Shown here: in pieces, positions 33,393 to 60,487 of the stretch | Position numbering within the stretch: the first letter of the stretch is position 1 | How the letters are laid out: the number at the start of each line of letters is the position of its first letter | NCBI GenBank assembly: GCA_963801355.1 | Contig: CAWDEM010000008.1 | Location: 992,001 to 1,056,000 of the forward strand | Direction of reading: 5' to 3' | Length of the DNA: 64,000 nucleotides | From: Ignavibacteriota bacterium | Lineage (GTDB): Bacteria > Bacteroidota > Ignavibacteria > UBA10030 > UBA6906 | The notes under the pieces: generated by a model | Seen by the model: the letters and a program-made list of their open reading frames with translations, nothing else | What the model was told of the DNA's origin: nothing | Databases searched by the model: none | Program-made: the position numbers and the translations under genes

Positions 33393-33458
33393 GGGGTCAG
33401 ACCCGTACCAATTGTCAATGGACTATTGACAATCATCAACCGGTGGGGGTCTGACCCC
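33393..33458. repeat. 66-bp palindromic element, copy 1
   Basis: GGGGTCAGACCC-GTACCAATTGTCAATGGACTATTGACAATCATCAACCGGTG-GGGGTCTGACCCC. Confidence 0.9.
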
Positions 33459-33495
33459 TTTACCTCTACGCCCAGGAGAAATGGGGTTGTTCACC

Positions 33496-33969
33496 CTACT
33501 TTGACGTCTGTCCGCCGTGATCGCCGATCATCACCCACTTGTTCCCCTGTTTCTTCAGGATGTCAGTCCACCGACCGGACGAAGATTTCTCTTTGCCGTC
33601 AAGATCTTTGGTCACACTGGTGTAATAATAGTCGACAAAGGCGACCTCCCCGTGGATCTTGATTGCGACAGGTTTTAGGTCAAAATACACTACTGGCCGG
33701 GTTTTCCAGCCGCTCTGCTCGAGATACTTCTTGGTGTCAGCTTTGTCCTGCGGCATGGGTGAGTCATACTCCCAACCGCAATAATCGCTGTGGAAGTACT
33801 CCAGGAATCCTTCGACATTCCTTGCGACGGCTAATGCGTTATACGCTTCGACGTTCTTCCACACCTCCTTCTGCGCTGCGGACCACTCTTGCGCGTAAAG
33901 CTGCGTTGAGACAAGCAGACAGGCGCACAGCACCACCAACGGGACAGCAACAGCTGCAATTCGTTTCAT
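33496..33969 (-). CDS. Exported NTF2-like (DUF4440/SnoaL-like) protein
   Basis: Signal peptide; GRWTDIL.KQG.KW..IGDHG C-terminal motif; AGGAGG RBS. Confidence 0.85.
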   Translation of the reverse strand: MKRIAAVAVPLVVLCACLLVSTQLYAQEWSAAQKEVWKNVEAYNALAVARNVEGFLEYFHSDYCGWEYDSPMPQDKADTKKYLEQSGWKTRPVVYFDLKPVAIKIHGEVAFVDYYYTSVTKDLDGKEKSSSGRWTDILKKQGNKWVMIGDHGGQTSK

Positions 33970-34016
33970 GGTGTTCCTCCTTGTTGTGTGATTTGTGGAT
34001 TTGAAGGTCTACCGCC

Positions 34017-34072
34017 TGAGGCGAAGCCTGACTTTTTCCCCAGACTTTGTTCTCAGGCTTTGTTCCTAGACC
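34017..34072. repeat. TGAGGCGAAGCCTG head + 13-bp degenerate tandem units
   Basis: CCTGACTTTTTCC/CCAGACTTTGTTC/TCAGGCTTTGTTC, abutting stop codon at 34073. Confidence 0.75.
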
Positions 34073-37000
34073 TCACCGCAAAAGCAAAAGCTTTTTCGTT
34101 TCCACACGGCCATTCGCCTGCAGACGGTAGAAATACGAGCCACTGGAGAGCTTGGAGCCGTCAAACGTGACCGTGTATTCCCCTGCCGGCCGCAGGTCGT
34201 TCACCAGCACCGCCACCTCCCGACCGAGCAGGTCGTACACGACGAGGCTTGCTGTCCTGGATCGCACCCCCCCACCACCAGACGCTGTCCTGTCGCCCCC
34301 AATGCTGAACCTAATAGTGGTGACCGGATTGAACGGGTTCGGGTAGTTTTGGCCGAGCCCGAACTCAGCCGGCAGAGGTTCCCCATTCTCTTCACCAATC
34401 CCTGTGACGACATACGGAGTGCTGAACGGCGAGGTATTGTTCGTCGTCTCACCCGCCGTTGTGTCGACCGCCACTGCTGTGACATGGGGACCCTTCACCG
34501 TCCCGCTCCAGGAAAACTTGCCCAGGGCGTCCGCAAAGGCCAGGCCACAATACTCCTCTCCTTCGTTACCGGGGTCATTATAGATGAACAGAACGCTCTT
34601 TGGCGCCGCAGTTCCCTTCACTTCGGTCGCACTTACCTCGGTAATGACCGGTGCCGACTTGCCGTGATTGCCGCCGTTTTCAAGGATGATTCCCCCTTCG
34701 GCATTGTGGGCAATACTCCCTGCTGCTATAAGATTCCTCACCGTTCCTTCCCCGCTCACACGGACGCCGGCCATGCCGTTGTTCCGTATGACGACGTACG
34801 ACGGATAGGCGAACCCGGAGATCGAGTTGTCCCTCGATCCGCCAACGATCCGAACGCCATCCGCGGCGTTACCCAGCTTTAGTTTGTGCGAAAAATCTGT
34901 GCCGATGCAGTTCACACTGACCACGTTGAACCCGGAGGTATCAGAGATCAGAATCCCCGAAGCACCGTTTCCGCCAATGATGTTCGCAGAAGCAGTATCC
35001 AGAAATCCGATGAAGTTCAGCGAGGAGCCTGAAATCCTGATGCCAGCCAGCTGGTTTCCTTTACTTGTCCTGGCATCGGGAGTGACACCTATGTAGCAAC
35101 CGGCAATCAGGTTCGCGCCAATGGGGATTTCGGAAATAAGGATTCCATTGCCGCCAAACCCGTCGATCGTCAGTCCATTCACCGTGTTCCAGGCTGATTT
35201 GATGGTGAATCCATTGGACCTGGATCCGGCAGTCCCTCCGTCGATTTCAACTTCCGGTCCAAATGGATTGGTATCGCCCGCAAAAAGCTGTTGGCTGGGA
35301 CCATCGAGATACGTCCCGCCATCGGTGATGTCGGGAAGAGCAGAGGTCGGCTTGATTGACCAGACGCCTGTGCTGGTCTTGTACCCTGGATCGGTTTTCG
35401 GGATGGCAAAAGAGATGCCATCCTGTCCGATGTGGGAGTTTGCGTCGAGAATCGCCTGCCGGAGCGAACCGGGACCGCTGTCGTTGGTGTTCGTGACAAC
35501 GAGACCCACCACCGCCGGAGTCATCACGGCGAAGATCGAGAGGTGTGTGGTGATGCCATACACACGATTCGTGCTCGTGTCACGCGAGCTCGTAATGTCA
35601 GACCAGGAAGAAGTCCCTGTATCGAATACCCGCAGGGTTGTTTGCACCTCCTCTTCGGGAGAAAGTCCGCTCCCATCGTATTGCAGGGAGACCTCCACGT
35701 TGCCTGTAAATGATGCCGTCGTCGTGATCTCCACAGAACTCCCTCCGAGGGAAAGCGCAAGCGCGGTCATACCGTTGGGAGCGGTGGGGACCGTGTTGGA
35801 AGGGTTGAAGGTCGTCATACCGGTAGCCGTGACCTTGTCGAATTTCAGCTTGGCGTTGCCGCTGTAGTCAACCTGGACGCCGGTTCCTATGGTTGTAGTG
35901 AATGACTCCAGAGCCGAGTAGTACGCGCCGTAGATATCGCGATCCGTGCTCGCGCTGTCGCGTGAATCGCTCCAGACAACGAGTGACGTCGGGTCTTTGG
36001 TGCTAGCTGCGATGGCGGGTTCATGCGGGTTCTCCTTCCCGGTGGTAGAGGAAAGGACGATGTTGGTGGGATTTGTCGAATAGGAGACGCCAGTGTAGCC
36101 CCGGATGTGGTTGACCGTGGCGTCATTGCCGGGAGCAGTACCCGGCGTCTCGCGCCAGACGACCTGAAACTTCTTCGCGACAGCATTGAACGTCGCGGCC
36201 GGTTTCCACGTCGGAACTGTGGAGGCAACCACCCAGTGATCGAAGTAGCGGCTGAGAACCGGGAAGGTCTTGTCTTGGACCTGCTCACTCTTGGAGTAGT
36301 GAAGGTTATCCGCATCGACATATCCCCCCCACACAGCCCCTTTCCAGCTGTTTTTCTCCGCGGTTTTGATGTCGTCGGACCAAACGATCAGGAACCTCCT
36401 TTGCGCCACCGGGGGCGGAGATACTTCGCCATACGCAACATCCATGTTATATCTCGTACCGCTGCCATTCATGTAGAAGTGAATCTCTGGCCAGGGGAGC
36501 TCAGTCGGGCCGCCATACATCGTGTTGATAGCTTTCCCATCACTGTCGAGCATGATGGGGGCGATACCCCACGTAAGCCATTTGACGACAAGGTAGCGTC
36601 CGAGTGGAGTCTCTGCCGTCGCGATGGGTGCATAGGCTGCCACAAAACCGCCGTAGGCGTGGAGAGATGCTTTCGTGAGATTCTCTTTTGGCGCGAGCGG
36701 CTGCCCGTCGGTGCCGATTTTGCGGGAGTACAAATCATTGCCCGCACCGAGCAAGAGGTAGTTGCCGGCAAGGGAGTTGTATAAAATCTTCGGCTGTGCT
36801 GCCATCGTCATGAGAAGAATCGGATCTCCAATTGTGGCGCCTGCTGCACTCACCCTCCGTCCGTAGATCGAAGAGTCGGGAAGAATGCCGGTCGCGTAGA
36901 CCACGAGGAACTCGTTTTGTGCCGCGTTGTATGCCACTGAAACACGAGAGTCGGTGAAAGCATACTTGACGATTTCGATGGCTCCGGCGACAGCAGCACC

Positions 37001-37225
37001 AGTTGCGTTGACGCGCCGGGCCATCACCGCGGTGAGTCCTACTCCGGTCCCTTGGTGCCATACAACAAGGTACTGGTCGGTCTGAGCGTTGTAGGCGACA
37101 GCGGGAGTGTGGTCGGGTTTGGCGGCGCTATATATCTGGAAATCGGCCGCGGCAGCAGGTGATGCGACAAACCACAGGAACAGCACTAGGCACAGTGCCC
37201 GACGGAGTATAGTAAGCATGTTCAT
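34073..37225 (-). CDS. Large exported protein: beta-propeller-like N-terminus, beta-helix domain, T9SS CTD
   Basis: P.VAYN....YLVVW repeats; VVTNTNDSGPGSLRQAI; paralogous to 31670-33301; QNYPNPFNP; GGAGG RBS. Confidence 0.85.
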   Translation of the reverse strand: MNMLTILRRALCLVLFLWFVASPAAAADFQIYSAAKPDHTPAVAYNAQTDQYLVVWHQGTGVGLTAVMARRVNATGAAVAGAIEIVKYAFTDSRVSVAYNAAQNEFLVVYATGILPDSSIYGRRVSAAGATIGDPILLMTMAAQPKILYNSLAGNYLLLGAGNDLYSRKIGTDGQPLAPKENLTKASLHAYGGFVAAYAPIATAETPLGRYLVVKWLTWGIAPIMLDSDGKAINTMYGGPTELPWPEIHFYMNGSGTRYNMDVAYGEVSPPPVAQRRFLIVWSDDIKTAEKNSWKGAVWGGYVDADNLHYSKSEQVQDKTFPVLSRYFDHWVVASTVPTWKPAATFNAVAKKFQVVWRETPGTAPGNDATVNHIRGYTGVSYSTNPTNIVLSSTTGKENPHEPAIAASTKDPTSLVVWSDSRDSASTDRDIYGAYYSALESFTTTIGTGVQVDYSGNAKLKFDKVTATGMTTFNPSNTVPTAPNGMTALALSLGGSSVEITTTASFTGNVEVSLQYDGSGLSPEEEVQTTLRVFDTGTSSWSDITSSRDTSTNRVYGITTHLSIFAVMTPAVVGLVVTNTNDSGPGSLRQAILDANSHIGQDGISFAIPKTDPGYKTSTGVWSIKPTSALPDITDGGTYLDGPSQQLFAGDTNPFGPEVEIDGGTAGSRSNGFTIKSAWNTVNGLTIDGFGGNGILISEIPIGANLIAGCYIGVTPDARTSKGNQLAGIRISGSSLNFIGFLDTASANIIGGNGASGILISDTSGFNVVSVNCIGTDFSHKLKLGNAADGVRIVGGSRDNSISGFAYPSYVVIRNNGMAGVRVSGEGTVRNLIAAGSIAHNAEGGIILENGGNHGKSAPVITEVSATEVKGTAAPKSVLFIYNDPGNEGEEYCGLAFADALGKFSWSGTVKGPHVTAVAVDTTAGETTNNTSPFSTPYVVTGIGEENGEPLPAEFGLGQNYPNPFNPVTTIRFSIGGDRTASGGGGVRSRTASLVVYDLLGREVAVLVNDLRPAGEYTVTFDGSKLSSGSYFYRLQANGRVETKKLLLLR

Positions 37226-37456
37226 TGGACCTCCCCGCGTGTGATTATTTCCTGATATGATATCCATGATGAGCCTTCAGAACCTTTTCAAGACGAGCGA
37301 CTCAGTGGAGTTTCTTGCGTTCCGGCGGTTTTGGAGACCATGCAACTTCGATTCGCATGCAACTTCGCCTCGTTGCTTCTCGTTGATGCATTCTGTACCA
37401 TTGGGCATTCAGCGGCATTGGGAGTTTTAGCCGGGAGCCCGACTGCGAGCGTGTAT

Positions 37457-37738
37457 TCATTCAAGCTCTCTGAGATGCGATAGCCGGCACCTGTACAGGC
37501 AGTCCAGACACACCAGCGTCCCCGGTTGAAACGAGTCACCGGGGCAACCGCTCAAGCATGCGAACCACTCGCGCAGTCTCAGTTGATTGACTCTCCCAAT
37601 TCGTGCTGCAGCTGCCATGGAAATGAGTTCTTTTTCTCCTTGACAGACGGCACAGAGACGCCCCGTTAGCCGGTAGTGCCGTTTCGTCATGGTGCGATGG
37701 GCGTGAATCAGCAGTATTTCTTCAATAACAGGCGACAT
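37457..37738 (-). CDS. Small Cys-rich protein with putative HTH (CxxC...AAA....LREW...CxxC)
   Basis: GGAAGG RBS before ATG 37738; CAVC and CLDC motifs around a helix-turn-helix-like segment; divergent from wHTH-TPR gene. Confidence 0.55.
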   Translation of the reverse strand: MSPVIEEILLIHAHRTMTKRHYRLTGRLCAVCQGEKELISMAAAARIGRVNQLRLREWFACLSGCPGDSFQPGTLVCLDCLYRCRLSHLRELE

Positions 37739-39780: not shown

Positions 39781-39867
39781 GCCCCGAGACCCGCACACTG
39801 TACTTCCCTCCAGGAGCAGTACACCGCCTACCGTCCTCTGGAGCACTCCGCCGGATCCGTCTCCAGA

Positions 39868-40938
39868 TCATTCCCCTTCTTTATAGAACCCCTCCGTGAA
39901 CCATCCGCACCAGTGTTCGTATGAAAACACCGTCGTCAACCCCATGCTCGTGTTCTTGACCGGGAGAACTTTCTCTGTGAAGGTATCGGAATACCTGAAG
40001 AGAGAGCCGGACATAGTGCCAAGTTCGAGTTGCTGAAGGACCTTGGTCGTCGTGAGTAGACCGAGAGTGATAGAGTAGCGGCCACACCAGACGGGGATCG
40101 ATTTCTTCGTCGTCGAATCGGGCCAGATCTCGCCCGTAAGACCTTGGATTTTTGTCCGGGTGATCTCTCCAGTGAGATGGGTATTGATGATCTTCCGGTC
40201 ATTCTCCGTGGCCAGAGCATGTGCCCGTGCATCGGTGCCATAGGGGGAGTTGTTAAAATCCGGTCCGTAGTGGTTTGCGTCGTTGGACATCAGGAAGAAG
40301 ATATCTTTCCCGGGTTCAAGCCGGTTCGCTGTGATGTATTCGGCGAAGATGCGCGCAAGACGGGTTGAGAGATCCTCCATCTTCTCGAAAGGCATACGTG
40401 TCACCATGATCGGAGTGATCTTCACATCCCGGTTATAGTATTGCAGGAAAGGGATAAGTGCCTCGATCGAGTGTTCGAGCGCATGAGCTTTGTTGCTGGT
40501 CAGGAGGTATTTCGGGGGGAGTTGCTTCCTGATGATCGCTCGCAGCGGCGAGATCTCCACATCGTTGTATGGTCCCCGCCACTTGCGATATTCGTCAAGG
40601 ATCACAACATTCGACAGCGGCCCGAGTTCCTTTGTGACGCTTCCATGTGTCACTCCGAAGATCACCACCTCTTTGGCGTGGATCATCTTATAGAGTGGAT
40701 AATAGACTCTACCTGCGTAGAGATAGTCATCGTGCACGGAGATGCCGGCTATCAGATCCCCTGCCGGATAGGCAATGGAATCAGCATGCGATTCCAGGTA
40801 CTTCATGAATGTTGTCATCTCATCTGCATTCCAGCAGAAGCCCACAGAGTCACGGACCGGCCTGCAATCCTGGGCCTGCAGGGATACGGCGTGAATGACA
40901 GGGACCAGCCACATGAGGGGAAGCCATCGAGCGTTCAT
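39868..40938 (-). CDS. Memo/AmmeMemoRadiSam protein B family, with signal peptide
   Basis: ISVHDDYLYAG, IFGVTH, EHSIEA..PFLQ, SND.NHYG, WCG. Confidence 0.8.
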   Translation of the reverse strand: MNARWLPLMWLVPVIHAVSLQAQDCRPVRDSVGFCWNADEMTTFMKYLESHADSIAYPAGDLIAGISVHDDYLYAGRVYYPLYKMIHAKEVVIFGVTHGSVTKELGPLSNVVILDEYRKWRGPYNDVEISPLRAIIRKQLPPKYLLTSNKAHALEHSIEALIPFLQYYNRDVKITPIMVTRMPFEKMEDLSTRLARIFAEYITANRLEPGKDIFFLMSNDANHYGPDFNNSPYGTDARAHALATENDRKIINTHLTGEITRTKIQGLTGEIWPDSTTKKSIPVWCGRYSITLGLLTTTKVLQQLELGTMSGSLFRYSDTFTEKVLPVKNTSMGLTTVFSYEHWCGWFTEGFYKEGE

Positions 40939-40968
40939 TGCGCTTGTCTTTCGGGAAGTGAAGCTTCA

Positions 40969-41014
40969 GGGGTGAGACCCCTTGCACACACGCATGCACA
41001 TGGGGTCAGACCCC
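40969..41014. repeat. Doublet of 13-bp palindrome GGGGT(G/C)AGACCCC with 20-bp spacer
   Basis: Copies 40969-40981 and 41002-41014; same 33-bp period as 7938/7971. Confidence 0.8.
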
Positions 41015-41118
41015 CACATTCTGAGCCAGCTGGCAGGGGTCAGGGACTCCAGAAATTACATAAACCTGCTGTTTTTTGCTATATTGGCTCTTACCCTCAC
41101 CAGCTGAAGGTTCCGGAC

Positions 41119-43492
41119 ATGCTTCGCGTTCACGTTACAACGACTAGATTTCTCTGCCTCATAGGCATGGCCTGTCAGATCGTCCTTGCGCAGTCATACG
41201 TTCCTGTCCGGGGAGATCCCCGCGTGGCCGTTCAGCCGACGGTGCATTTGGGGGCATATGGATTTGACCTGCGCGACGTGTCCCTTCTGGATGGCAGTCC
41301 ATTCAAAAATGCAATGGAGAAAGACGCAGCCTATCTGCTGCTGATTCAACCTGACCGGCTCCTGCACCGGTTCCATTCGAACGCAGGTCTGCCCACCAAA
41401 GGGGAAGTCTACGGGGGATGGGAGAGCGAAGGGCTCTCGGGACACACCCTGGGCCACTACCTGTCCGCTTGTGCAATGGTGTACGCCGGCACAGGCAATT
41501 CCGAATTCAAGGCCCGCGTTGAATATATCACAAATGAACTTGCCCGATGTCAGGCCGCACGTAAGACCGGCTACGTAGGAGCCATCCCGAATGAAGACAG
41601 CATATTCAGTAAAGTCGCCCGCGGAGAGATTCAGTCATCCGGGTTTGACTTGAACGGCGGATGGTCCCCCTGGTACACCGTGCACAAAATGATGGCGGGA
41701 TTGGTCGACGCCTATCTGTATTGTGGCAATGCGAAAGCACTGACGGTCGTGAAGGGCATGGCGGACTGGACCGGGCATGTCGTTGGTCATCTGACGGATG
41801 AACAGCGGCTCCGCATGCTCAACTGCGAATACGGAGGCATGAATGATGTGCTGGCGAATGTCTATGCCATCACGGGGAACAGGAAATATCTCGCACTATC
41901 GCAGAAGTTCCATGATGAGTTTGTCATGGGCAAACTTGCGCAGCGCATTGATCCCTTGCCGGGGAAGCACTCCAACACGAACGTTCCCAAAGCCATCGGT
42001 GCGGCCCGCCGTTACGAGTTGACGGGGGCTGAGTCGGACAACACCATCGCGTCGTTCTTCTGGGAGGTCATGGTGCACGATCACTAGCTACGTGATTGGA
42101 GGGAACAGCAATTACGAGTATTGTGGCGACCCGAAGAAATTGAACGACAGGCTCAGTGACAATACGTGTGAGACATGCAATACGTACAACATGCTGAAAC
42201 TCACACGTCATTTGTTCTGCTGGAATCCCACGCGCATGTATGCTGACTATTACGAGCGGGCCCTGTATAATCATATACTTGCATCGCAAAATCCCACCGA
42301 CGGCATGATGTGCTATTTCGTGCCTTTGCGCATGGGAGCGCGCAAGACCTTCAGTGATCAGTTCAACACGTTCACCTGCTGCGTCGGCAGCGGGATGGAG
42401 AACCACAGCAAGTATGCCGAAGCCATCTACTACGAAAGTCGGGACAGAGGTCTGTACGTCAATCTGTTCATTCCTTCCGAGCTCCGCTGGAGAAAACGCG
42501 GAGTGACCATTCGGATGGAAACCCGCTTCCCGGATTCCGATACAGTCACGATTTCCATACGCACGAAGAAATCCGTTCGCTTCCCTCTCTACGTCCGGGA
42601 GCCGGAATGGACCGGGAGCAAGATGCGGATTCTCGTCAACGGACACCTCATCGCATCCGCGCCGGATGCGGCAGGCTACCATCGGCTGTCGCCCGCGTGG
42701 CATGACGGCGACCGGATCACGGTTGTACTCCCGATGACAGTGCACACCGAGGGCATGCCCGACAATCCGGATCGCATCGCATTTCTCTCTGGTCCTATCG
42801 TGCTGGCGGCACAACTTGGCACGACAATGCCTGACCCTATTTACGGCACGCCCGTACTAGTCACTGAAGACCGGAGCCCGGCAAACTGGGTGCGGGCGGA
42901 GGCCGGTGCGCCGTTGACGTTTGTGGTGCACGGTGTGGGGAGGCCGTTTGACCCCGTGCTGAAGCCATTCTTCAGAACATACGATCAATACTACAGCGTC
43001 TATTTCGATTTCTTCACCGAACCAGGCTGGCAGGGACGACAGGCGGACTTCGAGGCGGAAAAGAAGAGAGTAGAGGAAATCACGGAGGCAACGATCGACG
43101 AGTTCCGCATAGGTGAAATGCAGCCGGAACGAGACCACAATCTTCAGGCGAACGAGAAGTCGTATGTCGACGCCGCGCTCGGCCGGCCAGGACGCGAGGC
43201 ACGCAGAGACAACCATTTCTCGTTCGATATGAAAGTGCAGCCGGGAGCGCGAAATTCTCTTCTTCTGACGTACATTGGCGACGACAATGACAGGAAGTTC
43301 GACATTTGCATTGACGGAGAGCTGCTTGCCACAGTTGAATGGACGGGTGGTAAGCCGGGGAGGTTTTACGATGTAGAGTATCCGCTTCCCGACTCCCTCA
43401 TTGCAGGCAAAACAAAGACAAGAGTACGGATTGAAGCGAACCATGGTAAGACGGCCGGGCGAATCTTCGGGTGCCGAACGTTGAGGAGGTAG
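41119..43492 (+). CDS. GH127/GH146 beta-L-arabinofuranosidase family; one frameshift at ~42085
   Basis: [36 protein letters not shown] | [37 protein letters not shown]. Confidence 0.9.
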
Positions 43493-43572
43493 AAAGGATT
43501 CAGGTCCCGGACAATCGTGGTCCGTCAACACACGAGGCACTCCCGCTTCCACACAAATCCGGAGAACCACTC

Positions 43573-44563
<991 letters not shown>

Positions 44564-44588
44564 GATTTCTTGCAGTCTTCTTCAGGTT

Positions 44589-45368: not shown

Positions 45369-45468
45369 GATAGAAGGACCAGAGTTTGCCGGTTTCCCGC
45401 CAGCGCTGCGCCGGCGTCATCCGGTACCAATCCATCCATTCGTCATCGGGTATGGATGCTGTATACAT
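45247..45468 (-). CDS. Small partner protein overlapping the nucleotidyltransferase
   Basis: W..WY.MTP..RW.E..KLW..YL..GGSLDPEPDS.SPF; promoter directly upstream. Confidence 0.65.
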   Translation of the reverse strand: MYTASIPDDEWMDWYRMTPAQRWRETGKLWSFYLAVGGSLDPEPDSESPFDAVRAQGTRPAHRRPGLRVLRGR

Positions 45469-45474
45469 GTGCCA

Positions 45475-45503
45475 AATATATCAACTCCCAGCGACGGAAG
45501 CAA
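45475..45503 (-). promoter_or_regulatory. Sigma70-type promoter giving a probably leaderless transcript
   Basis: TTGCTT-N17-TATATT with only 6 nt before ATG 45468. Confidence 0.6.
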
Positions 45504-45552
45504 ATGAGGGCAATTTGTTGCTCTTTCATGGGGAAACAGGCGGCTGCCAATT

Positions 45553-46167: not shown

Positions 46168-46175
46168 GCCTCCTC

Positions 46176-46217
46176 AAAAAAAAGTGAACCCCCTGCACGA
46201 AGGGGTACAAGGGGTTC
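46176..46217 (-). terminator. Intrinsic terminator immediately upstream of the NYN gene RBS
   Basis: 13-bp stem GAACCCCTTGTAC/GTGCAGGGGGTTC (2 G-U pairs), 6-nt loop, then AC-T8. Confidence 0.85.
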
Positions 46218-46285: not shown

Positions 46286-46397
46286 GCGGAATTCAAGGCC
46301 GAATGGGCTAAGCCGAGTGGGCTGAGGCCGACTGGGCAGAGTCCTAAGCGGTGACATTTCTATCGAGTCAGAACAGGGCCTCCTGGGCACAATATCG

Positions 46398-46462
46398 AGG
46401 ATCAGACCCGCACCAATAGTCAATAGACTATTCACAATCACCAATGGGTTGGGTCTGACCCC
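46398..46462. repeat. Palindromic element, copy 2
   Basis: AGGATCAGACCCGCACCAATAGTCAATAGACTATTCACAATCACCAATGGGTTGGGTCTGACCCC; 6 bp from stop at 46469. Confidence 0.88.
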
Positions 46463-46468
46463 AACCGA

Positions 46469-49315
46469 TCATCTCAAAAGCAAGAGTCTACGCGTCTGCA
46501 CAAAACCGTCTCGCGAGCCTCCCGAAGGACTCCCGACGGTCATCCTGTAGAAGTACACACCGGTAGAAAGTCCAGCAGCATTGAACACCACCTCGTAGCT
46601 CCCCGGTGCTTTCGGTTCGTCCACAAGCACGGTCACTTCCCGACCCAACAGATCGTAGACGGCCAGCCTGATCCAGCTAGACGACGGCCCCCTGGGGCCA
46701 GACCCCGTATTCGCACCCGGTTCCCCACCCGCCGCACCCGAGACCCGATACCCTATTCTTGTACTCGGATTGAATGGGTTTGGATAGTTCTGCTCGAGAA
46801 CGTATTCTTTGGGCAGCTGCAGGGATTGGTCAGAGGATACCTCCGTTGTCAATTCCAAATAGAAGTCGATGTTCGGCGTCGTTCCTCCGGCGACCACCAC
46901 CGCCTGGGCACTCGCGGGCACAAGAGGCATCGGCACCTGCATGACACTGTCCGGATGGACATCCAGCCCCGAATACCACTGGGTGACATACCGGTTCGAG
47001 TTCGCACGCAGCGACACTGCGAGCACATGGTACGTGCCCGGCCAAAGGCCCTTCAGACGGTAAGCACCGGAGAAAGACCCGGCAGAACTCGTGTACGCTC
47101 CCACGGCAGCGGGATGCCCTTGCTCATTGAAGGCATAGATCATAAACACCCCTGAGGTCATCGGTTTTCCCGTTCCGCGATCGAACACTGTCCCCGATAC
47201 TGCACCTGTCGTCCGTTCCATCACGAGATCGTTCAATTTGAGAGAGGTGCTCCCGGTCAGCGGCACACTCTTTGCCCCGGAGTCGGCGAAACTCCGTCCG
47301 TGTTCATAGTAGCAGATAGCGAGACTGTCGTCCAACACTGTGGAATTCGTCTGGGCGCTAAACGCCGCGATCTTGTAGGTCCGTGGAAGGACCGTTGTCT
47401 GATATCCACCGACAAAGGAAGTGTTCCGATAGGCGGCGTACTCCCCGTTCTCCGTATACAACATCACATCGATGATGTGGTCGGATTCGGTCAGGCGTCC
47501 GCCATTCTTGTCCGTCACAAAACCACCCACAGTGGCACTATACTCCAGGGTGAAATCGACGCCCAACACCGCTGCAGGCGCGGTTACGCTGACTATTGCC
47601 GCGCTCTGAACCGAAGGTTTTCCATTGTACCATTCAGAAGCATAGTCCGTGCCGGAATAGGAACAGAAAACTATATACGGAGCTGTGGGCAGCCCTCCCA
47701 GTGTATACGTCCCACCACTGACCCCCTTTCCCATAATCCTCTTCCCTTGCGCATCGCAGGCATACACCGTTGCACCACTGCTCAGTGGAGCGCCGGTTGG
47801 CGTCAGCACATTGCCAGTAATTGTTCCTCCCCGAGCGAGCGTGATATTGACATTCTTCGTCGTATCGGGAGGGCGAACCTCCACGAATGTCGCATGGTCA
47901 AAATCATCCGCACCATTGTACCACTTGTCGATTGCATGCGGACCGGAATATGAGTATGACTTGACAGAAGAGGCGATGACCTTATATCGACCGGCCGGAA
48001 GCCGGCCGATGCAATAGTCACCGTTTCCTGCGGTCAGGGCCCCCATGATGGAATTCTGCCACTCATCGTACACAGCAACGGTAATCCCAGCCGGCCAAAG
48101 TGGGTAGACTATCCTACCCGCTATGGCGCCGGCGCGGTGGAGCGTGACGGTAATCTTTGTTGTCTCAGGTGCCACGACGTCAATAGGCGTAGCATTCGCT
48201 TCTGTGTTGGTTCCATCGTACCATCCATCGGCGTAGTTGAGGGCGCCATGGTATGAATACGACACGTAGTATCTACCAGTCGCCAGCTTCGGGACGAAGA
48301 AAGTGCCGTCCGGACTATTCATCACGAAACCCAGTCCACTTCCCTCGGCATCACTCACTTCGATCTGGCACGCCTGTTCGGTAAGAATCCCTCCCCCCTC
48401 AGCAATCACCGTCCCACTGATCCCGCCGCCCGGCAGGAGATAGAAATCTTTTGTCTTCGAAGTCTCCGGTTCGACTACATGGATGAGGTCGGCCGCATCA
48501 AAACTTCCTGCCCCGGAGTACCATTGCGTCGTGAAGTTGACGCTGTCGTCGCTCGATGCCTCCAGCTTGTAATCTCCGGTCGGGAGGCCGATAATGGCGT
48601 ATTTCCCGGAGGAATCAGTGACATCCATGTTCAATGAGTTGTTCTGGCTGTCGTAGGCAATCACGTAGCATTCCGCAAGCGGCACAGTGTCCACGGAAAA
48701 CACCCTTCCGGAAATCGCCCCGCCATATTGATGGAGGATGAAATTGACGCCTGTGGTTTGTTGTCCATCCGTTACATGCACGAGCGCAGCATTATGCCAG
48801 TCGATCACGCCGTTGTAGTACTCCTCGAGGTAGGGAGACCGCGGAAGCAGCCTCAAATAGTAATCGCCGGTCGCCAGGGCCTTGACCTCATACGCTCCGG
48901 TCCCGTCGTAAGCCACTGACCCGTAGCCACAGTACTTCCCGAACTCGTTATATGCCCAGACCGAGGCGAATCCCGTTGTCGGCGTCACGCCGTCACTCTC
49001 GAGAACCTTCCCTGCAATTGAGCCGGTTCCGGCGACGGCTTGAAAGGATCGCAGGTAAATATCGATTTCGCTGTCGGTCTTTCCTTGCGCCTGGAGCCGT
49101 GCAATCGCTTCGGAGCATGCGTTGATCCTGTGCAGCGGGTCCTGGCTCGCGGACCTGGTCTTCTGGCTTTCCTGAACAGATCCGCCCGGGCAGGGAGGAA
49201 CCATCATTCTGACAAATGGTACCATTCCCTGCTCATCCTGCGCCTTCGTGTAGCGAAGGGGACAGAACGCGAGTGCGACGATGATAGGGAGAACGAGGAT
49301 CGAGTACTTGTGCAT
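46469..49315 (-). CDS. Surface protein with tandem carboxypeptidase-regulatory-like (Cna-B/SdrD-like) repeats and T9SS CTD
   Basis: ~7 repeats of G.ISG.V...G.Y....L..G.Y...WY.G; QNYPNPFNPST; GGAGG RBS. Confidence 0.87.
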   Translation of the reverse strand: MHKYSILVLPIIVALAFCPLRYTKAQDEQGMVPFVRMMVPPCPGGSVQESQKTRSASQDPLHRINACSEAIARLQAQGKTDSEIDIYLRSFQAVAGTGSIAGKVLESDGVTPTTGFASVWAYNEFGKYCGYGSVAYDGTGAYEVKALATGDYYLRLLPRSPYLEEYYNGVIDWHNAALVHVTDGQQTTGVNFILHQYGGAISGRVFSVDTVPLAECYVIAYDSQNNSLNMDVTDSSGKYAIIGLPTGDYKLEASSDDSVNFTTQWYSGAGSFDAADLIHVVEPETSKTKDFYLLPGGGISGTVIAEGGGILTEQACQIEVSDAEGSGLGFVMNSPDGTFFVPKLATGRYYVSYSYHGALNYADGWYDGTNTEANATPIDVVAPETTKITVTLHRAGAIAGRIVYPLWPAGITVAVYDEWQNSIMGALTAGNGDYCIGRLPAGRYKVIASSVKSYSYSGPHAIDKWYNGADDFDHATFVEVRPPDTTKNVNITLARGGTITGNVLTPTGAPLSSGATVYACDAQGKRIMGKGVSGGTYTLGGLPTAPYIVFCSYSGTDYASEWYNGKPSVQSAAIVSVTAPAAVLGVDFTLEYSATVGGFVTDKNGGRLTESDHIIDVMLYTENGEYAAYRNTSFVGGYQTTVLPRTYKIAAFSAQTNSTVLDDSLAICYYEHGRSFADSGAKSVPLTGSTSLKLNDLVMERTTGAVSGTVFDRGTGKPMTSGVFMIYAFNEQGHPAAVGAYTSSAGSFSGAYRLKGLWPGTYHVLAVSLRANSNRYVTQWYSGLDVHPDSVMQVPMPLVPASAQAVVVAGGTTPNIDFYLELTTEVSSDQSLQLPKEYVLEQNYPNPFNPSTRIGYRVSGAAGGEPGANTGSGPRGPSSSWIRLAVYDLLGREVTVLVDEPKAPGSYEVVFNAAGLSTGVYFYRMTVGSPSGGSRDGFVQTRRLLLLR

Positions 49316-49387
49316 GGCCTCCTCCGTTCACTGTGCGCTTCTCACACCGGTCCAGCGGGCATTGTGTGTGCATTGTCCCCCGGCCAC

Positions 49388-49460
49388 GGGTCAGACCCGA
49401 ACCAATTGAGAATTGTCAATCGACTATCGACGATCGATCAATCGGTCGGGGTCTGACCCC
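49388..49460. repeat. Palindromic element, copy 3 (one extra heptamer)
   Basis: GGGTCAGACCCGAACCAATTGAGAATTGTCAATCGACTATCGACGATCGATCAATCGGTCGGGGTCTGACCCC. Confidence 0.88.
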
Positions 49461-49515
49461 AATTCGCATATGAGTGTCCACAACCGAGGCAAAAAAGTCG
49501 GAACTCACTCTTGCT

Positions 49516-49959
49516 CTATTTGAGAGTGATTTCTCGAACCAGCTTGTCGCCCAGAATTTCCCGCATCTCGCTGCGCTTGTTGACACCGACCTTCTGCTGT
49601 TCCGGCGAACCGGCAATCTTCACATCAATGGCATTGTATTTTTCGGCGATGCCATCCAGAGCCGCCATGTTCTTGTATTCGATCATCAACATAAGATCCC
49701 AGTCGTCCTCGGTTGCTGCTAAGCCGGAGAGGATCTTGTATGACAATATCAAGCCTTGCTTCTTGGCTTCCTCGTTTTCGGTTCGCCAAACGGCAGCAAG
49801 GTTCCTGAGGTAGTCATCCTCCATGCCAGGCTTCGTCCTGACGAATGTCAATTCCCAGACAGTTCCCTCCTTATAGGGAAGTTCCTGGGCCGCGCTTTGT
49901 GCCGGAAGAGACAGAAGTACCAGCAGTGCAATGAGACAAAAACGGCTCGTGTATTTCAT
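49516..49959 (-). CDS. Exported hypothetical protein (possible dimeric alpha/beta-barrel fold)
   Basis: Signal peptide, AAGGAG RBS; W....VRTKPG..DDYL, WDL.L.IEY.N.AALD. Confidence 0.8.
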   Translation of the reverse strand: MKYTSRFCLIALLVLLSLPAQSAAQELPYKEGTVWELTFVRTKPGMEDDYLRNLAAVWRTENEEAKKQGLILSYKILSGLAATEDDWDLMLMIEYKNMAALDGIAEKYNAIDVKIAGSPEQQKVGVNKRSEMREILGDKLVREITLK

Positions 49960-50003
49960 GGTGATCTCCTTTGACCTTGATTGTGGGCTCTCATGTGTGA
50001 AGG

Positions 50004-51842
50004 CTACTTCGCAAGAAGGATCTTACGCACTTGAACGGTATTACCTGCTCTGCTCTTGGAGTCACGCCCGATGGTGGACTCCAGAGGGTGGGCCTGCATC
50101 CTGCACAAATACGCGCCGCTCGACAATTTAGCTGCGTCAAACTCAACTTCATAGATTCCCGCTTCCCTCTTCTCATTTACAAGCACAGACACCTCACAAC
50201 CGAGCATGTCATAAACACTCAACCGGACGTAAGAAGCCTCAGGCAGCTCGTACTTGATGGTCGTGCTCGGGTTGAACGGATTCGGATAGTTCTGCATGAG
50301 CGCGTAGCCACCCGCAACGGCCCTGTTGCCCACACTCGTCACAGAAGGCATGACAACATTGACTACTGGCGAGTAATTCACTGAACCGTCCAGATCGATC
50401 TGCTTCAGACGGTAACTCCAGTTTCCCTGGCCTGCGGTTCTGTCCGTGTAGGTGTACGTCTGGGGCGCCACAGTGGTCCCATGGCCGGCAACAAATGCAC
50501 CGTCGAGTGTTCGGAACTCAGCGTCAGCGCTTCCCTTCCGTTGAATTTCGAACCCATAGTTGTTTGTTTCGGACAACGTTTTCCATTCAAGTGTCACAGA
50601 AGCTGAATTAGAAACCCGCGCATCGAAAGCGGCCAGCTGAACCGGCACGGGTGGCTCATAGATAGGCGTGACTGCATCAAGAGCCACGCCTCCTTCGTAT
50701 GTGCCGGCCAATGTACCCCAGATGTCCACGAAGACCTCGGCGATCGTATAGTGTGTCGGAAACGTAGGAATCGCAGACCAATCGAAGGCGAGAAAATTCC
50801 AGACAGCCGTACCGTCGCCATACACATCGTGGAGAAGCACTTGCGCATCGCCGTTGTAGAACCACCGATATCTGGACTGATCAATATCCCACGCCTTGAC
50901 GTAGAGGTTGGCGTGGACCGCGGAGGGTCCCATGCAATTCGCGATCTGAACCGTATACCCTATGGCGCTCTGCCATGCCGACAGGGAACTCAGATCCGGA
51001 GAGTGCATTTGCATGATCCACCAGGTTCCAGCCGAGCCCGTGACCCCGTGACCACTTGTGCATCCCATGTAGTACGAGCCGCAGTTGTCACCTCCGACTG
51101 CCTGTCCGGGGGGCGACGGACAATCAATCTCGTCTTTCCACAACGAGACGAAATTCGAGGAGAACGGACCAGCCCCGTTGTTGTCGAAGGCCCCCTGGAG
51201 CGTCCATCCCTGCGTTGTACCGTCGCTGAAGGAATACGATGTTCCCAGCTGAACGAACTCAAGATTGTCCAGGTTGTTTTCCGCATACATCGAGGTCACC
51301 ACGATCGATCTGATGCCTGTGGAATGGTCTTCATATGAAACTTGGGCGTAGCTACCACTATTCCAGGGAATTGCTTCAAAATAGAGAAGGTTCGTGCTCG
51401 CCAGGTCGCTGTAGTACGCCACCTTCATGTAGTCAGGCGTGTGCACAGGGATCATGTCGTGACTCAATTCGAGTTGGACGCGTTCTTTCGCCGACGTGAA
51501 ACGGATCACCACCTGCCCGCTTGCGTCAGTGGTGCTGTTCGAGGTGATCAGTGGCGAGAAAAACAGGGATCGCAGACCCACGCCCATGCTGGTTACATTC
51601 ATCTCGCCATAGGTGATGATGAAACTGACCCCGTAGTCCGTATCAGTAAGCGTGTTCGCGGGGCCGCCATGGTAGAGCTTGTATCCCACCGCTGAATTCC
51701 ATTTGCTCTGTTCAAATGTGATAATCCCGCTCTGGGCTGTGGCAAGGCTGGAAAGCAACATCACGCAGAGCAGAAGACCGAGTCCGCGGAGAAGCCAGAA
51801 TGTGGCGAGACGGGGTCGGCGAGAGGAAAGACATTTGTCCAT
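50004..51842 (-). CDS. Exported protein of unknown function with PVEL-type Fn3-like linker and T9SS CTD
   Basis: Signal peptide; VPVQLAAF, L.W.T.SE.NN.GFEIQR, YRLKQIDLDG, QNYPNPFNPST. Confidence 0.85.
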   Translation of the reverse strand: MDKCLSSRRPRLATFWLLRGLGLLLCVMLLSSLATAQSGIITFEQSKWNSAVGYKLYHGGPANTLTDTDYGVSFIITYGEMNVTSMGVGLRSLFFSPLITSNSTTDASGQVVIRFTSAKERVQLELSHDMIPVHTPDYMKVAYYSDLASTNLLYFEAIPWNSGSYAQVSYEDHSTGIRSIVVTSMYAENNLDNLEFVQLGTSYSFSDGTTQGWTLQGAFDNNGAGPFSSNFVSLWKDEIDCPSPPGQAVGGDNCGSYYMGCTSGHGVTGSAGTWWIMQMHSPDLSSLSAWQSAIGYTVQIANCMGPSAVHANLYVKAWDIDQSRYRWFYNGDAQVLLHDVYGDGTAVWNFLAFDWSAIPTFPTHYTIAEVFVDIWGTLAGTYEGGVALDAVTPIYEPPVPVQLAAFDARVSNSASVTLEWKTLSETNNYGFEIQRKGSADAEFRTLDGAFVAGHGTTVAPQTYTYTDRTAGQGNWSYRLKQIDLDGSVNYSPVVNVVMPSVTSVGNRAVAGGYALMQNYPNPFNPSTTIKYELPEASYVRLSVYDMLGCEVSVLVNEKREAGIYEVEFDAAKLSSGAYLCRMQAHPLESTIGRDSKSRAGNTVQVRKILLAK

Positions 51843-52127
51843 ATCGCCCTCCTTCGAAAGTCCGAAGATGTAAGAAACGGGCCGGCAGCTCTTGCCGGGG
51901 GCTGGAGCACAAATCAAGGGAATCGCTGTAGCATCAGCCGGAGGGTCGTCGGGTGGGCTCTAAAACGGAGGAACTAGAACAGGGTCCAGAGCGGCTGCCC
52001 TCAAGCCGGAGAGACCGTTGGGCACACCATTGTTTGCCGGAATCTACACTAGAGAAACCTGGAAAGCAAGTCCTTCAGCTTCGGCTAATGTGCTTCGGGA
52101 AATGTGGCAAATCCAATGGGTGCACAT

Positions 52128-52193
52128 GGGCTCAGACCCGAACCAATTGTCAATAGTCAATTGACAATCGTCAATTGGTTGGGTTCAGACTCC
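52128..52193. repeat. Palindromic element, copy 4
   Basis: GGGCTCAGACCCGAACCAATTGTCAATAGTCAATTGACAATCGTCAATTGGTTGGGTTCAGACTCC; 11 bp from stop at 52205. Confidence 0.88.
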
Positions 52194-52204
52194 TGTGCGC
52201 AGCT

Positions 52205-55781: not shown

Positions 55782-56035
55782 TCGTGTCACTCCGTTATCC
55801 TGCAATTGAGTCTGGGAGCAGATCCCCCGCACGCAGTTTGCTCATGATTACTTGTACGAGTGTTTGAGCAAATCGTGTCATTTGTCCGGGCAGGCCAATG
55901 GAATCTCAATGAAGAGATGGAGCTGCTGGATGTTCCAATGTGAATATATGCTCCCCTCCCCCGAGAATCAAGCAGCAGCCACTCTTGACTTCCGCACACT
56001 TGATTTCCGCAGCTGTAATGGCGTTCTTTTGGCAG

Positions 56036-56815
56036 ATGACCGCCCAATCGAAAACAACCCTGCTCATTCCTGTCCTGGCGCTCGCAATCACTTGCAGCAC
56101 GGCACAGACATCGGTAACCAGCGCAGGGATCCTGTCACCGGACTCCGCCATCACAAGCGAAGATGTGAGGTTTTCCACATGGAAGCATCCTCACATGACG
56201 GTTGTTGAGGTGCCTGATACCCTGACCTTTCTCTATCTCCCGCGGAACGATGTACCTCTGGATTCAATCGCCCGGCGGGAGAAATTCCGGGCGGTGATTA
56301 ACGGCTCATTCTTTGATGGAACCCGGGGAAATGCGAGTCACGCGGGCTGGTTGTCAATGTACGGCATGAATGTGACCCCCATGATGGATGACAGACAGTT
56401 GACACACGTCGTTCGGATTGATGGATCAAAGCGCAGGGTCAACTTCTTGCCCGTTGTTTCGTTCGTGCCTTCGAAAGATCGGCATCTGCTTGAGTTCCAG
56501 ACCGGCCCGCTCATTATCGAGAATGGCAGAATTCGGGAAGACTTAATTCGTTCATCGATCAACGGGTCATCCAGACACACCCGATCCCTTCTGGCCACAC
56601 TCAATCATCGCCGTTGCTTCTTCATCACCGTGACTGACCGGGTGACCCTGACCGATCTCGCTGCCACACTTCTTCATCTCAGCGTCTTCATCCGAGGCAG
56701 GCTTGACGTTGTCGACCTTGACGGTGGTTCATCCGTCGCCCTCTACCTCAAGGGTGCTCCCGGCTTCAATTTTAACGTCCGCGATCGGCTTCCGATTCTG
56801 ATCGGATTCCGTTAG
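56036..56815 (+). CDS. Phosphodiester glycosidase (NAGPA/DUF2233) family protein
   Basis: INGSFF, GPL....G, R.LLA, DLDGGSS; signal peptide. Confidence 0.8.
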   Translation: MTAQSKTTLLIPVLALAITCSTAQTSVTSAGILSPDSAITSEDVRFSTWKHPHMTVVEVPDTLTFLYLPRNDVPLDSIARREKFRAVINGSFFDGTRGNASHAGWLSMYGMNVTPMMDDRQLTHVVRIDGSKRRVNFLPVVSFVPSKDRHLLEFQTGPLIIENGRIREDLIRSSINGSSRHTRSLLATLNHRRCFFITVTDRVTLTDLAATLLHLSVFIRGRLDVVDLDGGSSVALYLKGAPGFNFNVRDRLPILIGFR

Positions 56816-56956
56816 ATTTTCCTCTATTTCAGCCCGAAAAGTCCAACTCTCCGCTTGCTACGCCCCAAAGCAGAAATTCATTTCTGAGGGCACACAGTGA
56901 ACAAAAGTTTATTATCTTTGACCGAGAGGTTCCACACCCCCTGAAAGGAGGCATTC

Positions 56957-59466: not shown

Positions 59467-59507
59467 AAGTCAGTCCTTTTTCGACATTTCTATCCGCCGC
59501 ATAGAAA

Positions 59508-59663: not shown

Positions 59664-60008
59664 TTAAAGACTGAGGATACTCCTCAGTCCTCTGTCGATC
59701 TTCTGCATGGTCTCCGATCTCATGTTACCACGCTTCTCAATTAGCCTGGCCTGGTCTACAGCTTTTACCTGATCGCACAACACGATGCAGTCTTTGCTCG
59801 TGCCTCCCTCACCCCTCTTTACTGCAATGTGGATAATGTCTGCGGGGAGATTCACGCCTTCCGTGATTGGGCAAACAATCACAAGAGAAGAATATTGGTT
59901 GAAGGTGTTTGACGAGACGATCACACATGGCCTGGTTTTTCGGATTTCCACTCCGACAGATGGATCGGGCTTCACCTCATAGGTTTCACCGCGTTGGGCA
60001 TAGTTCAT
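59664..60008 (-). CDS. mazF: PemK/MazF family toxin
   Basis: RGE.Y....DP..G.E..KTRPC.IVS...N, V.PIT, CDQVKAVD..RL. Confidence 0.95.
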   Translation of the reverse strand: MNYAQRGETYEVKPDPSVGVEIRKTRPCVIVSSNTFNQYSSLVIVCPITEGVNLPADIIHIAVKRGEGGTSKDCIVLCDQVKAVDQARLIEKRGNMRSETMQKIDRGLRSILSL

Positions 60009-60265
60009 TCGGTCCTCGTTTCAAACCCTGCCCATTCAGGAGAAAACTTCTTGTTGAATTCACGGTAATTCACACACGCTTCTGCGAGTTCCTTTTCCAG
60101 CAATTCCCTCTCTTTGTTCTCGACGAATTGCCGAATGGCCTCGCGCATGAGTTGACTTAGATCGACTCCCAGATCCTTGGCAACGATTTCTGCCCGTCCG
60201 GCAAGATCGGCAGGCAAAAGAAAATTCTTACGCAACTTATGTTCACTAGCGGCAAGGGTTCGCAA
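60005..60265 (-). CDS. Ribbon-helix-helix antitoxin (MazE/CopG-like)
   Basis: N..LP..L.......A...G...SQL.REAI; ATGA overlap with toxin; GGAGG RBS before TTG 60265. Confidence 0.85.
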   Translation of the reverse strand: MRTLAASEHKLRKNFLLPADLAGRAEIVAKDLGVDLSQLMREAIRQFVENKERELLEKELAEACVNYREFNKKFSPEWAGFETRTE

Positions 60266-60323
60266 AGCATCCTCCATCCACATGAAATACACACATCAAA
60301 TATACATATATAATTGTGCACTA

Positions 60324-60352
60324 AATATACGCCGAACAAGGTGTATTGTCAA
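60324..60352 (-). promoter_or_regulatory. Sigma70-type promoter of the TA operon
   Basis: TTGACA-N17-TATATT in AT-rich region. Confidence 0.75.
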
Positions 60353-60422
60353 CTGTTATATCCTACACCCTTTATTGTTCCTTTAAGATATTATATGTCA
60401 ATTAGTTATGCACACAGTAGCC

Positions 60423-60487
60423 GGGGTAAGACCCGGACCAATTGTCAGTAGTCTATCGACAATCGTCAATCGGTGCGGTCGCACCTC
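60423..60487. repeat. Palindromic element, copy 5 (degenerate right end)
   Basis: GGGGTAAGACCCGGACCAATTGTCAGTAGTCTATCGACAATCGTCAATCGGTGCGGTCGCACCTC. Confidence 0.82.

Follow-up and report, generated by a model that had tools for sequence, protein, structure and literature searches.

The window analyzed here is a stretch of 64,000 nucleotides from an Ignavibacteriota bacterium (G000:C8:992001-1056000, G000 being the genome, of 4.8 Mb and 57% GC, and C8 one of its contigs). It carries five copies, c1 to c5, of a palindromic element that sits behind the stop codons of minus-strand open reading frames (ORFs), at distances of 6, 11, 27, 37 or 55 bp (Table 1). A sequence-only reading of this DNA had placed five such elements here, 6-55 bp past a minus-strand stop, and had taken them for either a mobile repeat of the REPIN type (doublets of repetitive extragenic palindromic, or REP, sequences that fold into one hairpin) or the recombination site of a gene-cassette system other than an integron. 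The elements are present as described, and the ORF coordinates bear out their position: in an alignment of the five copies (~66-74 bp), mean column identity is 71% and 38 columns are invariant, and the junction motif AGACCCGNACCAATWG (<=1 mismatch) occurs five times in the window, always on the plus strand, against 0.02 expected from 100 shuffles. As for the neighboring genes, c2 lies ~230 bp upstream of an ORF with a NYN domain and c5 ~130 bp upstream of a mazE-like ORF; the extended palindrome of c4 terminates 3 bp before the stop codon of an M3 peptidase ORF.

On balance, we favor the view that these elements are a lineage-specific, non-autonomous, dispersed hairpin repeat made of phased 7-nt units, which in its behavior resembles REPINs, bacterial interspersed mosaic elements (BIMEs), and miniature inverted-repeat transposable elements (MITEs). 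They behave like ordinary selfish repeats of the REP/MITE type and not like gene-cassette boundaries.

All complete copies, which we call composites, follow one plan: a 13-bp palindrome, GGGGTCWGACCCC, is followed by six or seven phased heptamers that together form an AT-rich palindrome, and then by the 13-mer again. The canonical composite spans 73 bp and reads GGGGTCWGACCC(G), then AACCAAT-TGTCAAT-AGTCAAT-GGACTAT-TGACAAT-CATCAAT-CGGTT, then GGGGTCWGACCCC. Heptamer-sized indels separate the copies, with c1 and c2 lacking one heptamer and c4 and c5 another. The extra heptamer that had been ascribed to c3 is real insofar as c3 is longer, but the seven-heptamer form is canonical genome-wide, and it is the other four that are each short of a unit. 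The 13-mer likewise consists of a heptamer, GGGGTCW, in an inverted pair, the arms of the composite are phased 7-nt units in opposite orientation, and in some copies the palindrome is prolonged outward by TGYGCA-like arms. Where composites stand in tandem, neighboring units use one middle 13-mer in common.

Mapped across the genome, the family comprises 19 composites (on either strand), 18 copies that consist of the core only (core-only copies), and 34 solitary 13-mers. The nhmmer profile, iterated once, returned 50 loci at E<1, with composites above 50 bits (E 1e-14 to 1e-25), core-only copies at 20-50 bits, and 13 weaker matches. Exact matches to the 13-mer number 21 genome-wide, with 18 lying outside composites, whereas each of 29 composition-matched palindromes is found 0-1 times; with <=1 mismatch allowed, the count rises to 51, of which 34 are solitary and most are intergenic. 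Solitary 13-mers often form arrays with a 33-bp period, in which the 13-mer alternates with a 20-bp spacer rich in TGYGCA. Such pairing also qualifies the earlier statement that the first 31 kb of the window hold no element, which is true of composites, but the GC-rich end motif is paired there at 7938 and 7971. Rfam, at its gathering threshold, gave no match in the window, and the phage and plasmid collections held no match to the element pattern.

The co-orientation that had been read in the window holds for all five copies, but genome-wide the copies lie on both strands. Since neither the split relative to the preceding gene (9 opposite, 5 same) nor that relative to the GC-skew replichores (13:6) is significant, the shared orientation is a local feature. 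The clustering is real: five of 19 copies within 27.1 kb were reached in 1 of 20,000 random placements.

Each window copy folds into one long hairpin, at -25.7 to -40.8 kcal/mol on the plus strand (z -2.9 to -6.8) and at -25 to -45 kcal/mol when either strand is considered (z -2.6 to -6.8), and the terminal arms of the five copies match at 11-18 of 22 positions, as terminal inverted repeats do. RNAalifold recovered just 3 pairs from a 21-copy alignment because heptamer register shifts spoil the alignment columns, and for that reason the structure was scored on a hand-drawn hairpin. There, 80.3% of cells are paired, compared with 22-48% when the partners are slid, and 19 cells carry two-sided changes, compared with 10.0 +/- 2.6 in shuffles; one example is the change from TGTCAAT...ATTGACA to TGTGGAT...ATCCACA.

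The elements stand behind genes. Taking gene ends from our own approximate codon-model ORF calls and ARAGORN tRNAs, we find that 15 of 19 composites have a gene 3' end no more than 60 bp away (for 10 of them, no more than 15 bp), compared with 1006 of 5000 random intergenic placements of 73 bp, and that a single composite (1/19) is as near to a gene 5' end, compared with 1221 of 5000. Fourteen of the 18 core-only copies are at most 15 bp from a 3' end, which belongs to a tRNA gene in seven cases, and 18 of the 34 solitary 13-mers lie within 60 bp of one; three composites are located in divergent promoter regions. Of the 47 tRNA genes, 8 have an element at -4 to +10 nt from their 3' end. Heptamer palindromes stand inside the 16S-23S spacer, on the flanks of tRNA-Ile and tRNA-Ala (G000:C4:956505-956795), and fill the spacers of the Thr-Tyr-Gly-Thr-(rpmG)-Trp cluster, a few nucleotides from the tRNA ends (G000:C4:1031934-1032575).

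This location bears on the idea that the elements are binding sites of a nucleoid or regulatory protein, either a dimer on the 13-mer or a reader of 7-bp phased units, selected at gene ends. The 13-mer is strongly over-represented and perfectly symmetric, its companion units keep a 7-bp phase, the core contains TTGACA-like hexamers, and the Geobacter genome paper suggests, in the excerpts that concern its paired repeat sites, binding of the IHF/HU type (PMC2700814). Yet the two-sided changes keep the pairing while the sequence alters, unit sequences differ between species at the same site, and the copies stand at 3' ends and not at promoters, all of which makes a protein-binding origin very unlikely in our judgment.

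Nor do the elements resemble intrinsic terminators. No T-run follows them on either strand of the five window copies, and a terminator consensus scan flags just the small inner hairpin of c5, the sites with a canonical hairpin and T-run being at 57684-57659 and 46217-46186. The latter (window 46186-46217, minus strand) is a strong terminator-like structure between c2 and the start of the NYN-domain ORF, just downstream of a sigma-70-like promoter match at 46285-46257.

Searched with a covariance model, the family is present in 12 of 41 genomes, G000 included: in all four congeners (G001 to G004), most strongly in G002, and in 7 of 20 other genomes of the same taxonomic family, mostly as weak or core-only matches, with none in the 16 genomes from other families of the order. 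In two other genera, the match lies directly 3' of tRNA-Arg(TCG). A scan of the whole collection with a degenerate pattern returned 116 stretches, mostly chance or unrelated matches such as a repeated archaeal gene start, and all pattern matches followed by a heptamer core lie in records labeled Ignavibacteria. Our literature search on repetitive extragenic palindromic repeats in Ignavibacteria found no paper on such repeats.

Comparison with the congeners, whose assemblies are fragmented in G001-G003 and have contigs often ending in repeats, shows that the unit is copied to new sites, given near-identical copies at non-orthologous loci and one copy inserted into a 10-nt operon spacer. When 16 G002 loci were compared with the whole G000 genome, eight had a copy at the same site in G000, three were filled in G002 and empty in G000, four showed complex differences, and at one G002 carries a 13-mer and heptamer core where G000 (window 7938-7983) has two 13-mers around 20 bp. 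A single 13-mer, be it exact or degenerate, is left at each of the three empty sites in G000; in one case it forms a continuation of the end of the gene itself, GAAGTCTGA. Conversely, where G000 has its copy at C8:902438, only 10-12 nt and no 13-mer separate the two co-oriented genes in G001 and G004, so that the sequences there read as a whole-unit insertion into an operon junction. Copies in G002 lie near one consensus, even at sites common with diverged G000 copies, which suggests recent copying or gene conversion in G002, and near-consensus copies are present at G002-specific sites as well. In another case, a composite is all that separates two neighboring genes of G002 between which G000 has ~28 kb (G000:C8:2274737-2302855), with no 13-mer at either edge in G000.

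What separates two convergent genes at C8:2241496 differs from species to species: a solitary 13-mer in G000, a composite in G002 (contig C208), an unrelated 107-bp spacer in G003 (C253), and inserts of ~1.7-1.8 kb in G001 (C89) and G004 (C10), of which that of G004, when read, holds a gene with the tail of type IX secretion system (T9SS) cargo. The T9SS sorting domains encoded in the window are in keeping with an Ignavibacteriota genome. Four DNA sequencing runs yielded short contigs of relatives, none of which spanned an element or showed an informative joint.

Several observations count against copying as the whole account. The single 13-mer kept at 3/3 empty sites is explained by site-specific integration as well as by deletion, and the outgroups have neither 13-mer nor core at two of these sites and no usable match for the third; solitary 13-mers may be targets or remnants. 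Target-site duplications are missing, in that filled/empty pairs show just the 13-mer itself or nothing, and no transposase, recombinase, or REP-associated tyrosine transposase (RAYT) gene stands next to any copy. For a REP family, 19 composites, 18 core-only copies, and 34 solitary 13-mers are few. At the level of RNA, the sense strand is not more stable than the antisense strand (7/14), so that a role in the transcript finds no support from folding. Furthermore, two patterns look more like in-place turnover than transposition. At C8:2759628, G000, G001, and G004 all have a 13-mer and core, but the core of G001 is built from an ATTATCC-type heptamer, and the spacers of tRNA genes likewise change unit between species.

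The tRNA spacers are instructive in this respect. The Thr-Tyr-Gly-Thr-Trp cluster is conserved in 30 relatives, but its spacers are variable: within the genus, heptamer palindromes occupy them in four of five genomes, G002 having a different GC-rich hairpin, while some other genera of the order have palindromes or tandem arrays of different 6-8-nt units, and many others have spacers of 2-30 nt with no hairpin. Because spacers vary or lack hairpins in this way, the hairpins are not essential for tRNA maturation and turn over quickly. Units seen elsewhere in the order (G024, G010, G040, G031) include ATTATCC, TTTTAAG/ATTTTAG-type, and GGAAAAG-type sequences.

Such turnover is what one would expect if the elements were old, inherited heptamer-microsatellite hairpins that are not mobile. 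Slippage and conversion within the palindrome would then lengthen or shorten the arms and replace their unit, and likeness between loci would stem from gene conversion or common constraints. The core-only palindromes that fill the conserved tRNA-cluster spacers and the rRNA spacer fit this explanation, as do the other 6-8-nt units, or their absence, in the same spacers of 30 relatives and the replaced heptamer of G001 at C8:2759628. We nevertheless consider it unlikely, in view of 19 loci that carry the same ordered series of non-identical heptamers between the same termini, of whole-unit presence or absence with clean edges (including the insertion into a 10-12-nt operon spacer), and of the near-consensus copies at G002-specific sites.

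The sequence-only reading had linked the elements to a RAYT of the HUH class, and one explanation is that they are classical REPINs mobilized by the genome's own RAYT (HUH Y1) transposase. The genome does have a single Y1_Tnp gene (C8:1730682-1731266, 195 aa; 39.3 bits against a Pfam cut-off of 23), whose best NCBIfam match is the REP-associated tyrosine transposase, and the doublet-hairpin architecture fits the REPIN definition as excerpts of PMC3116915 give it. That NCBIfam score is 67.8 bits, below the curated cut-off of 80; the gene is flanked by tandem T-rich 12-mers of the type YCWGRCTTTTTT and not by the 13-mer or core; and the nearest copy is 40 kb away. Its protein was found in none of the four family-bearing congeners and, among the 40 relatives searched, in 16: one of 11 that bear the element compared with 15 of 29 that lack the family. 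No consensus GTAG or CGTC tag appears in the flanks of the 51 oriented 13-mers. We therefore rejected the RAYT link on the grounds of the sub-cut-off score, the different flanking repeat, the 40-kb distance, and the failure to find the protein in any of the four congeners; RAYT-driven mobilization is already largely refuted and, in our estimate, extremely unlikely. What stands of the REPIN-like interpretation is the architecture and behavior (dispersed hairpin doublets, solitary ends, tandem arrays, filled and empty sites), but not its transposase.

The 12-mers constitute a second repeat family, with at least 11 intergenic clusters of three or more units in the genome. Two clusters (C8:1730536-1730585 and 1731324-1731405) stand on both sides of the RAYT-like gene, one array abuts a solitary 13-mer at C8:1362016, and the window has arrays at 16567-16642, 33330-33385 (directly left of c1), and 34028-34064. 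These 12-mers may be the real partner repeats of the RAYT-like gene.

Whether the elements delimit gene cassettes can be judged from the variation of the window itself. Its first 30 kb are collinear with G002 at 86-90% identity, and the stretch from 30 to 64 kb is variable. Eight indels or replacements, counted from BLAST coordinates within or at the ends of contigs, distinguish the two genomes (Table 1), and the breakpoint lies within 10 bp of an element in three of them and of no element in the other five. The three cases comprise the 5.9-kb segment missing from G002 that has c4 as its right edge, the 4.6-kb segment next to a 13-mer pair, and the segment at c5, where the syntenic G002 contig ends in a copy and lacks the MazEF pair.

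Table 1. Repeat copies in the window and differences between the window and G002 (window coordinates).
Feature	Coordinates	Strand	Remarks
c1, composite of 66 bp, six heptamers	33393..33458	+	73.1 bits; 37 bp from the stop of the DUF4440 ORF 33496-33969(-)
c2, composite of 65 bp, six heptamers	46398..46462	+	57.3 bits; 6 bp beyond the stop of a 948-aa CarboxypepD_reg/T9SS-tail ORF
c3, composite of 74 bp, canonical seven-heptamer form	49387..49460	+	81.7 bits; 55 bp beyond the stop of a 147-aa ORF
c4, composite of 66 bp	52128..52193	+	69.5 bits; palindrome reaches 52120-52201 through outer TGYGCA arms
c5, composite of 65 bp, right GC end degenerate	60423..60487	+	58.4 bits; 27 bp beyond the stop of a 1034-aa arylsulfotransferase-like T9SS-tail ORF
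13-mer pair, both exact GGGGTCTGACCCC, 20 bp apart	7938..7983	no strand	just behind a stop codon
13-mer pair, one with 1 mismatch, 20 bp apart	40969..41014	no strand	second copy starts at 41002
Indel vs G002	26395-27652	no strand	BLAST; no element within 10 bp of the edges
Indel vs G002	31542-31916	no strand	BLAST; no element within 10 bp of the edges
Indel vs G002	33231-37600	no strand	BLAST; no element within 10 bp of the edges
Indel vs G002	39817-40818	no strand	BLAST; no element within 10 bp of the edges
Indel vs G002, 4.6 kb	40963-45552	no strand	left breakpoint 7 bp from the 13-mer pair 40969/41002
Indel vs G002	46293-52204	no strand	52204 is 3 bp from the c4 palindrome end; solitary 13-mer at the G002 junction
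Indel vs G002	55790-56934	no strand	BLAST; no element within 10 bp of the edges
Indel vs G002	MazEF segment after 59533	no strand	left edge of c5; G002 contig ends in a copy

A site-specific recombination system could use the 13-mer as its crossover site and install, swap, and remove whatever two 13-mers enclose, mostly a heptamer core but at times genes, which is the non-integron cassette idea of the sequence-only reading. It would account for the contrast between filled units and the single 13-mer at 3/3 G000 empty sites, for the solitary 13-mer of G002 exactly where G000 has c2 through c4 and three genes, for the 7-bp distance between the 40963-45552 breakpoint and a 13-mer pair, for the site with spaced 13-mers in G000 and a 13-mer with core in G002, and for the clustering of five copies in a variable region. 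We still hold such a crossover system to be decidedly improbable. The eight tyrosine recombinase genes all lie outside the window and more than 3 kb from any 13-mer or copy, and no serine recombinase was found, so that the expectation of a recombinase gene near the motif fails. A 13-bp palindrome with a 1-bp center is also shorter than the usual sites of tyrosine or serine recombinases. No integron integrase passes the TIGR02249 cut-off (best 88 against 265 bits). Two insertions, the one at C8:902438 and one at another locus (L041) where G001 and G004 carry a 1.7-kb T9SS-cargo gene without 13-mers, involve no outgroup 13-mer; G003 has homologues of the 948-aa and 147-aa genes without any element. 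The polarity of the site relative to the genes is not fixed, and deletion between direct repeats flanking a palindrome yields the same filled/empty pattern.

Because five of eight indels are free of elements and no recombinase is near, we conclude that the elements accompany some of the variation, as is common for repeats, but gene gain and loss in this part of the genome do not depend on them. By the refuting condition of the sequence-only reading itself, the cassette idea largely fails: the orientation of 9:5 and the copies inside core operons (rRNA spacer, tRNA cluster, 10-nt operon junction) form a distribution that it had tied to ordinary REP-type repeats, although empty sites often keep a 13-mer and some gene-sized indels end at 13-mers. 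The filled/solitary pattern and the three breakpoints at elements leave cassette-type explanations a small chance. In a broader form, the 13-mer would be a site where some machinery installs, exchanges, and removes heptamer-hairpin modules, and occasionally genes, behind 3' ends; we consider this quite unlikely. Such machinery would act by recombination or templated synthesis, and, if it exists, the window would show a cassette-like system without an integron.

Three features of the variable region deserve mention in their own right. A MazF-like and antitoxin-like pair at 59664-60292 is missing from the syntenic G002 contig, where the element follows the common gene at ~90 bp. At 40441-43492, a GH127 beta-L-arabinofuranosidase is split into ORFs 40441-42087 and 42092-43492 in different frames, with positions 1-262 of the Pfam catalytic domain in the first and 266-376 in the second, which marks a frameshifted gene or a sequencing error. 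Upstream of a 637-aa ORF, 65 bp (51936-52000) are 86-88% identical to a stretch beside an aldo-keto-reductase gene in G001 and G004 and may be a common regulatory or repeat segment.

To return to the dispersed hairpin repeat that we favor, the whole unit is a hairpin of ~66-90 nt in which six or seven TTGWCAA-type heptamers form an AT-rich palindrome between two clamping 13-mers. It lands or survives almost exclusively just past the 3' ends of protein-coding and tRNA genes. Some enzyme may copy this unit in trans, with gene conversion presumably homogenizing the copies. Direct repeats that flank a palindrome are known to lose the intervening palindrome, and the core-loss step follows this behavior: slippage or recombination between the two flanking 13-mers, which are identical, would remove the palindromic core and leave a solitary 13-mer behind. 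Once transcribed, the element would give the upstream transcript a highly stable 3'-terminal hairpin that lacks a U-tract and may serve as a 3' barrier or processing stem and not as a canonical terminator. The clustering and common orientation in the window would then reflect local spread in a variable region rich in T9SS cargo genes, and not cassette machinery.

Heptamer-repeat hairpins between bacterial genes are widespread and poorly understood. In the present family, the heptamer hairpin has gained GC clamps and become a recognizable multi-copy unit, so that its gain, loss, and replacement can be traced site by site between congeners; this makes it testable how such hairpins spread and whether they act at transcript 3' ends. 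The repeats mark variable regions but do not define them. They also break short-read assemblies, as seen from several G002 contigs that end inside copies.

Set against known systems, the elements resemble integron attC sites in part. Both are imperfect palindromes 3' of ORFs, clustered among toxin-antitoxin and secreted-protein genes, but here there is no IntI and the polarity is not fixed, with 9 opposite and 5 same orientations genome-wide. The paired RYYYAAC/GTTRRRY cores, whose lack at the ends the sequence-only reading had rightly pointed out, are absent from all five window copies, three having no match at all and two a single internal GTTGGGT. Moreover, copies are scattered genome-wide, core operons included, and the segments between them hold one, two, or four genes.

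MITEs, of which the Correia elements of Neisseria are an example, are likewise short, non-coding, dispersed, and intergenic, with terminal inverted repeats that here are ~22 bp. In contrast to them, no target-site duplication that varies between insertions was found in the present family, and most MITEs are longer than this element. No parent insertion sequence with the same ends was found among the 13-mer pairs 0.3-6 kb apart, for which enclosed ORFs were annotated in the window.

REPINs and the REP-RAYT system, e.g., of Pseudomonas fluorescens SBW25, offer another parallel, as far as excerpts of PMC3116915 and PMC2817692 describe them. Both kinds of element are extragenic and mostly behind genes, have two inverted GC-rich palindromic ends that form one hairpin, are dispersed as palindromes and doublets, and show solitary remnant-like ends and tandem clusters; both form lineage-specific families and are excised or missing at some sites. 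REP families usually exceed 100 copies per genome (PMC2817692, in part), and REP units have a conserved GTAG or CGTC tag at one end (PMC3733652, in part), whereas the family here has tens of copies and not hundreds, no such tag, and no cognate RAYT flanked by the repeat. Its spacer, too, is a conserved palindrome of phased heptamers, and, each end being a perfect 13-bp self-palindrome, the ends are direct and inverted repeats at once.

The BIME-1/RIP (repetitive IHF-binding palindromic) form of the enterobacterial BIMEs contains a site for integration host factor (IHF). Like BIMEs (PMC2817692, in its passages on BIMEs), the present elements look like modular mosaics that join a palindromic, GC-rich unit to further motifs, an AT-rich central module among them. 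Regularly spaced arrays, here with a 33-bp period and 13-core-13(-core-13) units, may be another common trait, and in both the composition varies between relatives at one site. They differ in that the sequences and the phylum are unrelated and an alternating orientation is undefinable for a self-palindromic unit.

The core belongs to a little-studied class of heptanucleotide-repeat hairpins. Cyanobacterial STRR (short tandemly repeated repetitive) sequences are members of this class, too. Excerpts of three papers report the 'class 3' paired sites of Geobacter metallireducens, with five MTYCTGA repeats (PMC2700814), intergenic heptamer repeats in Beggiatoaceae, cyanobacteria, and Bacteroidetes (PMC4679880), and heptamer repeats in Xanthomonas and Nostoc (PMC4692102). 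An ordered array clamped by GC palindromes, dispersed in multiple copies and present or absent as a whole unit, is not described in those excerpts and sets the present family apart. What it has in common with the hairpins of this class are the phased 7-nt arms in opposite orientation, the placement in spacers that include tRNA and rRNA operons, and a unit that turns over quickly between relatives while the arms stay paired.

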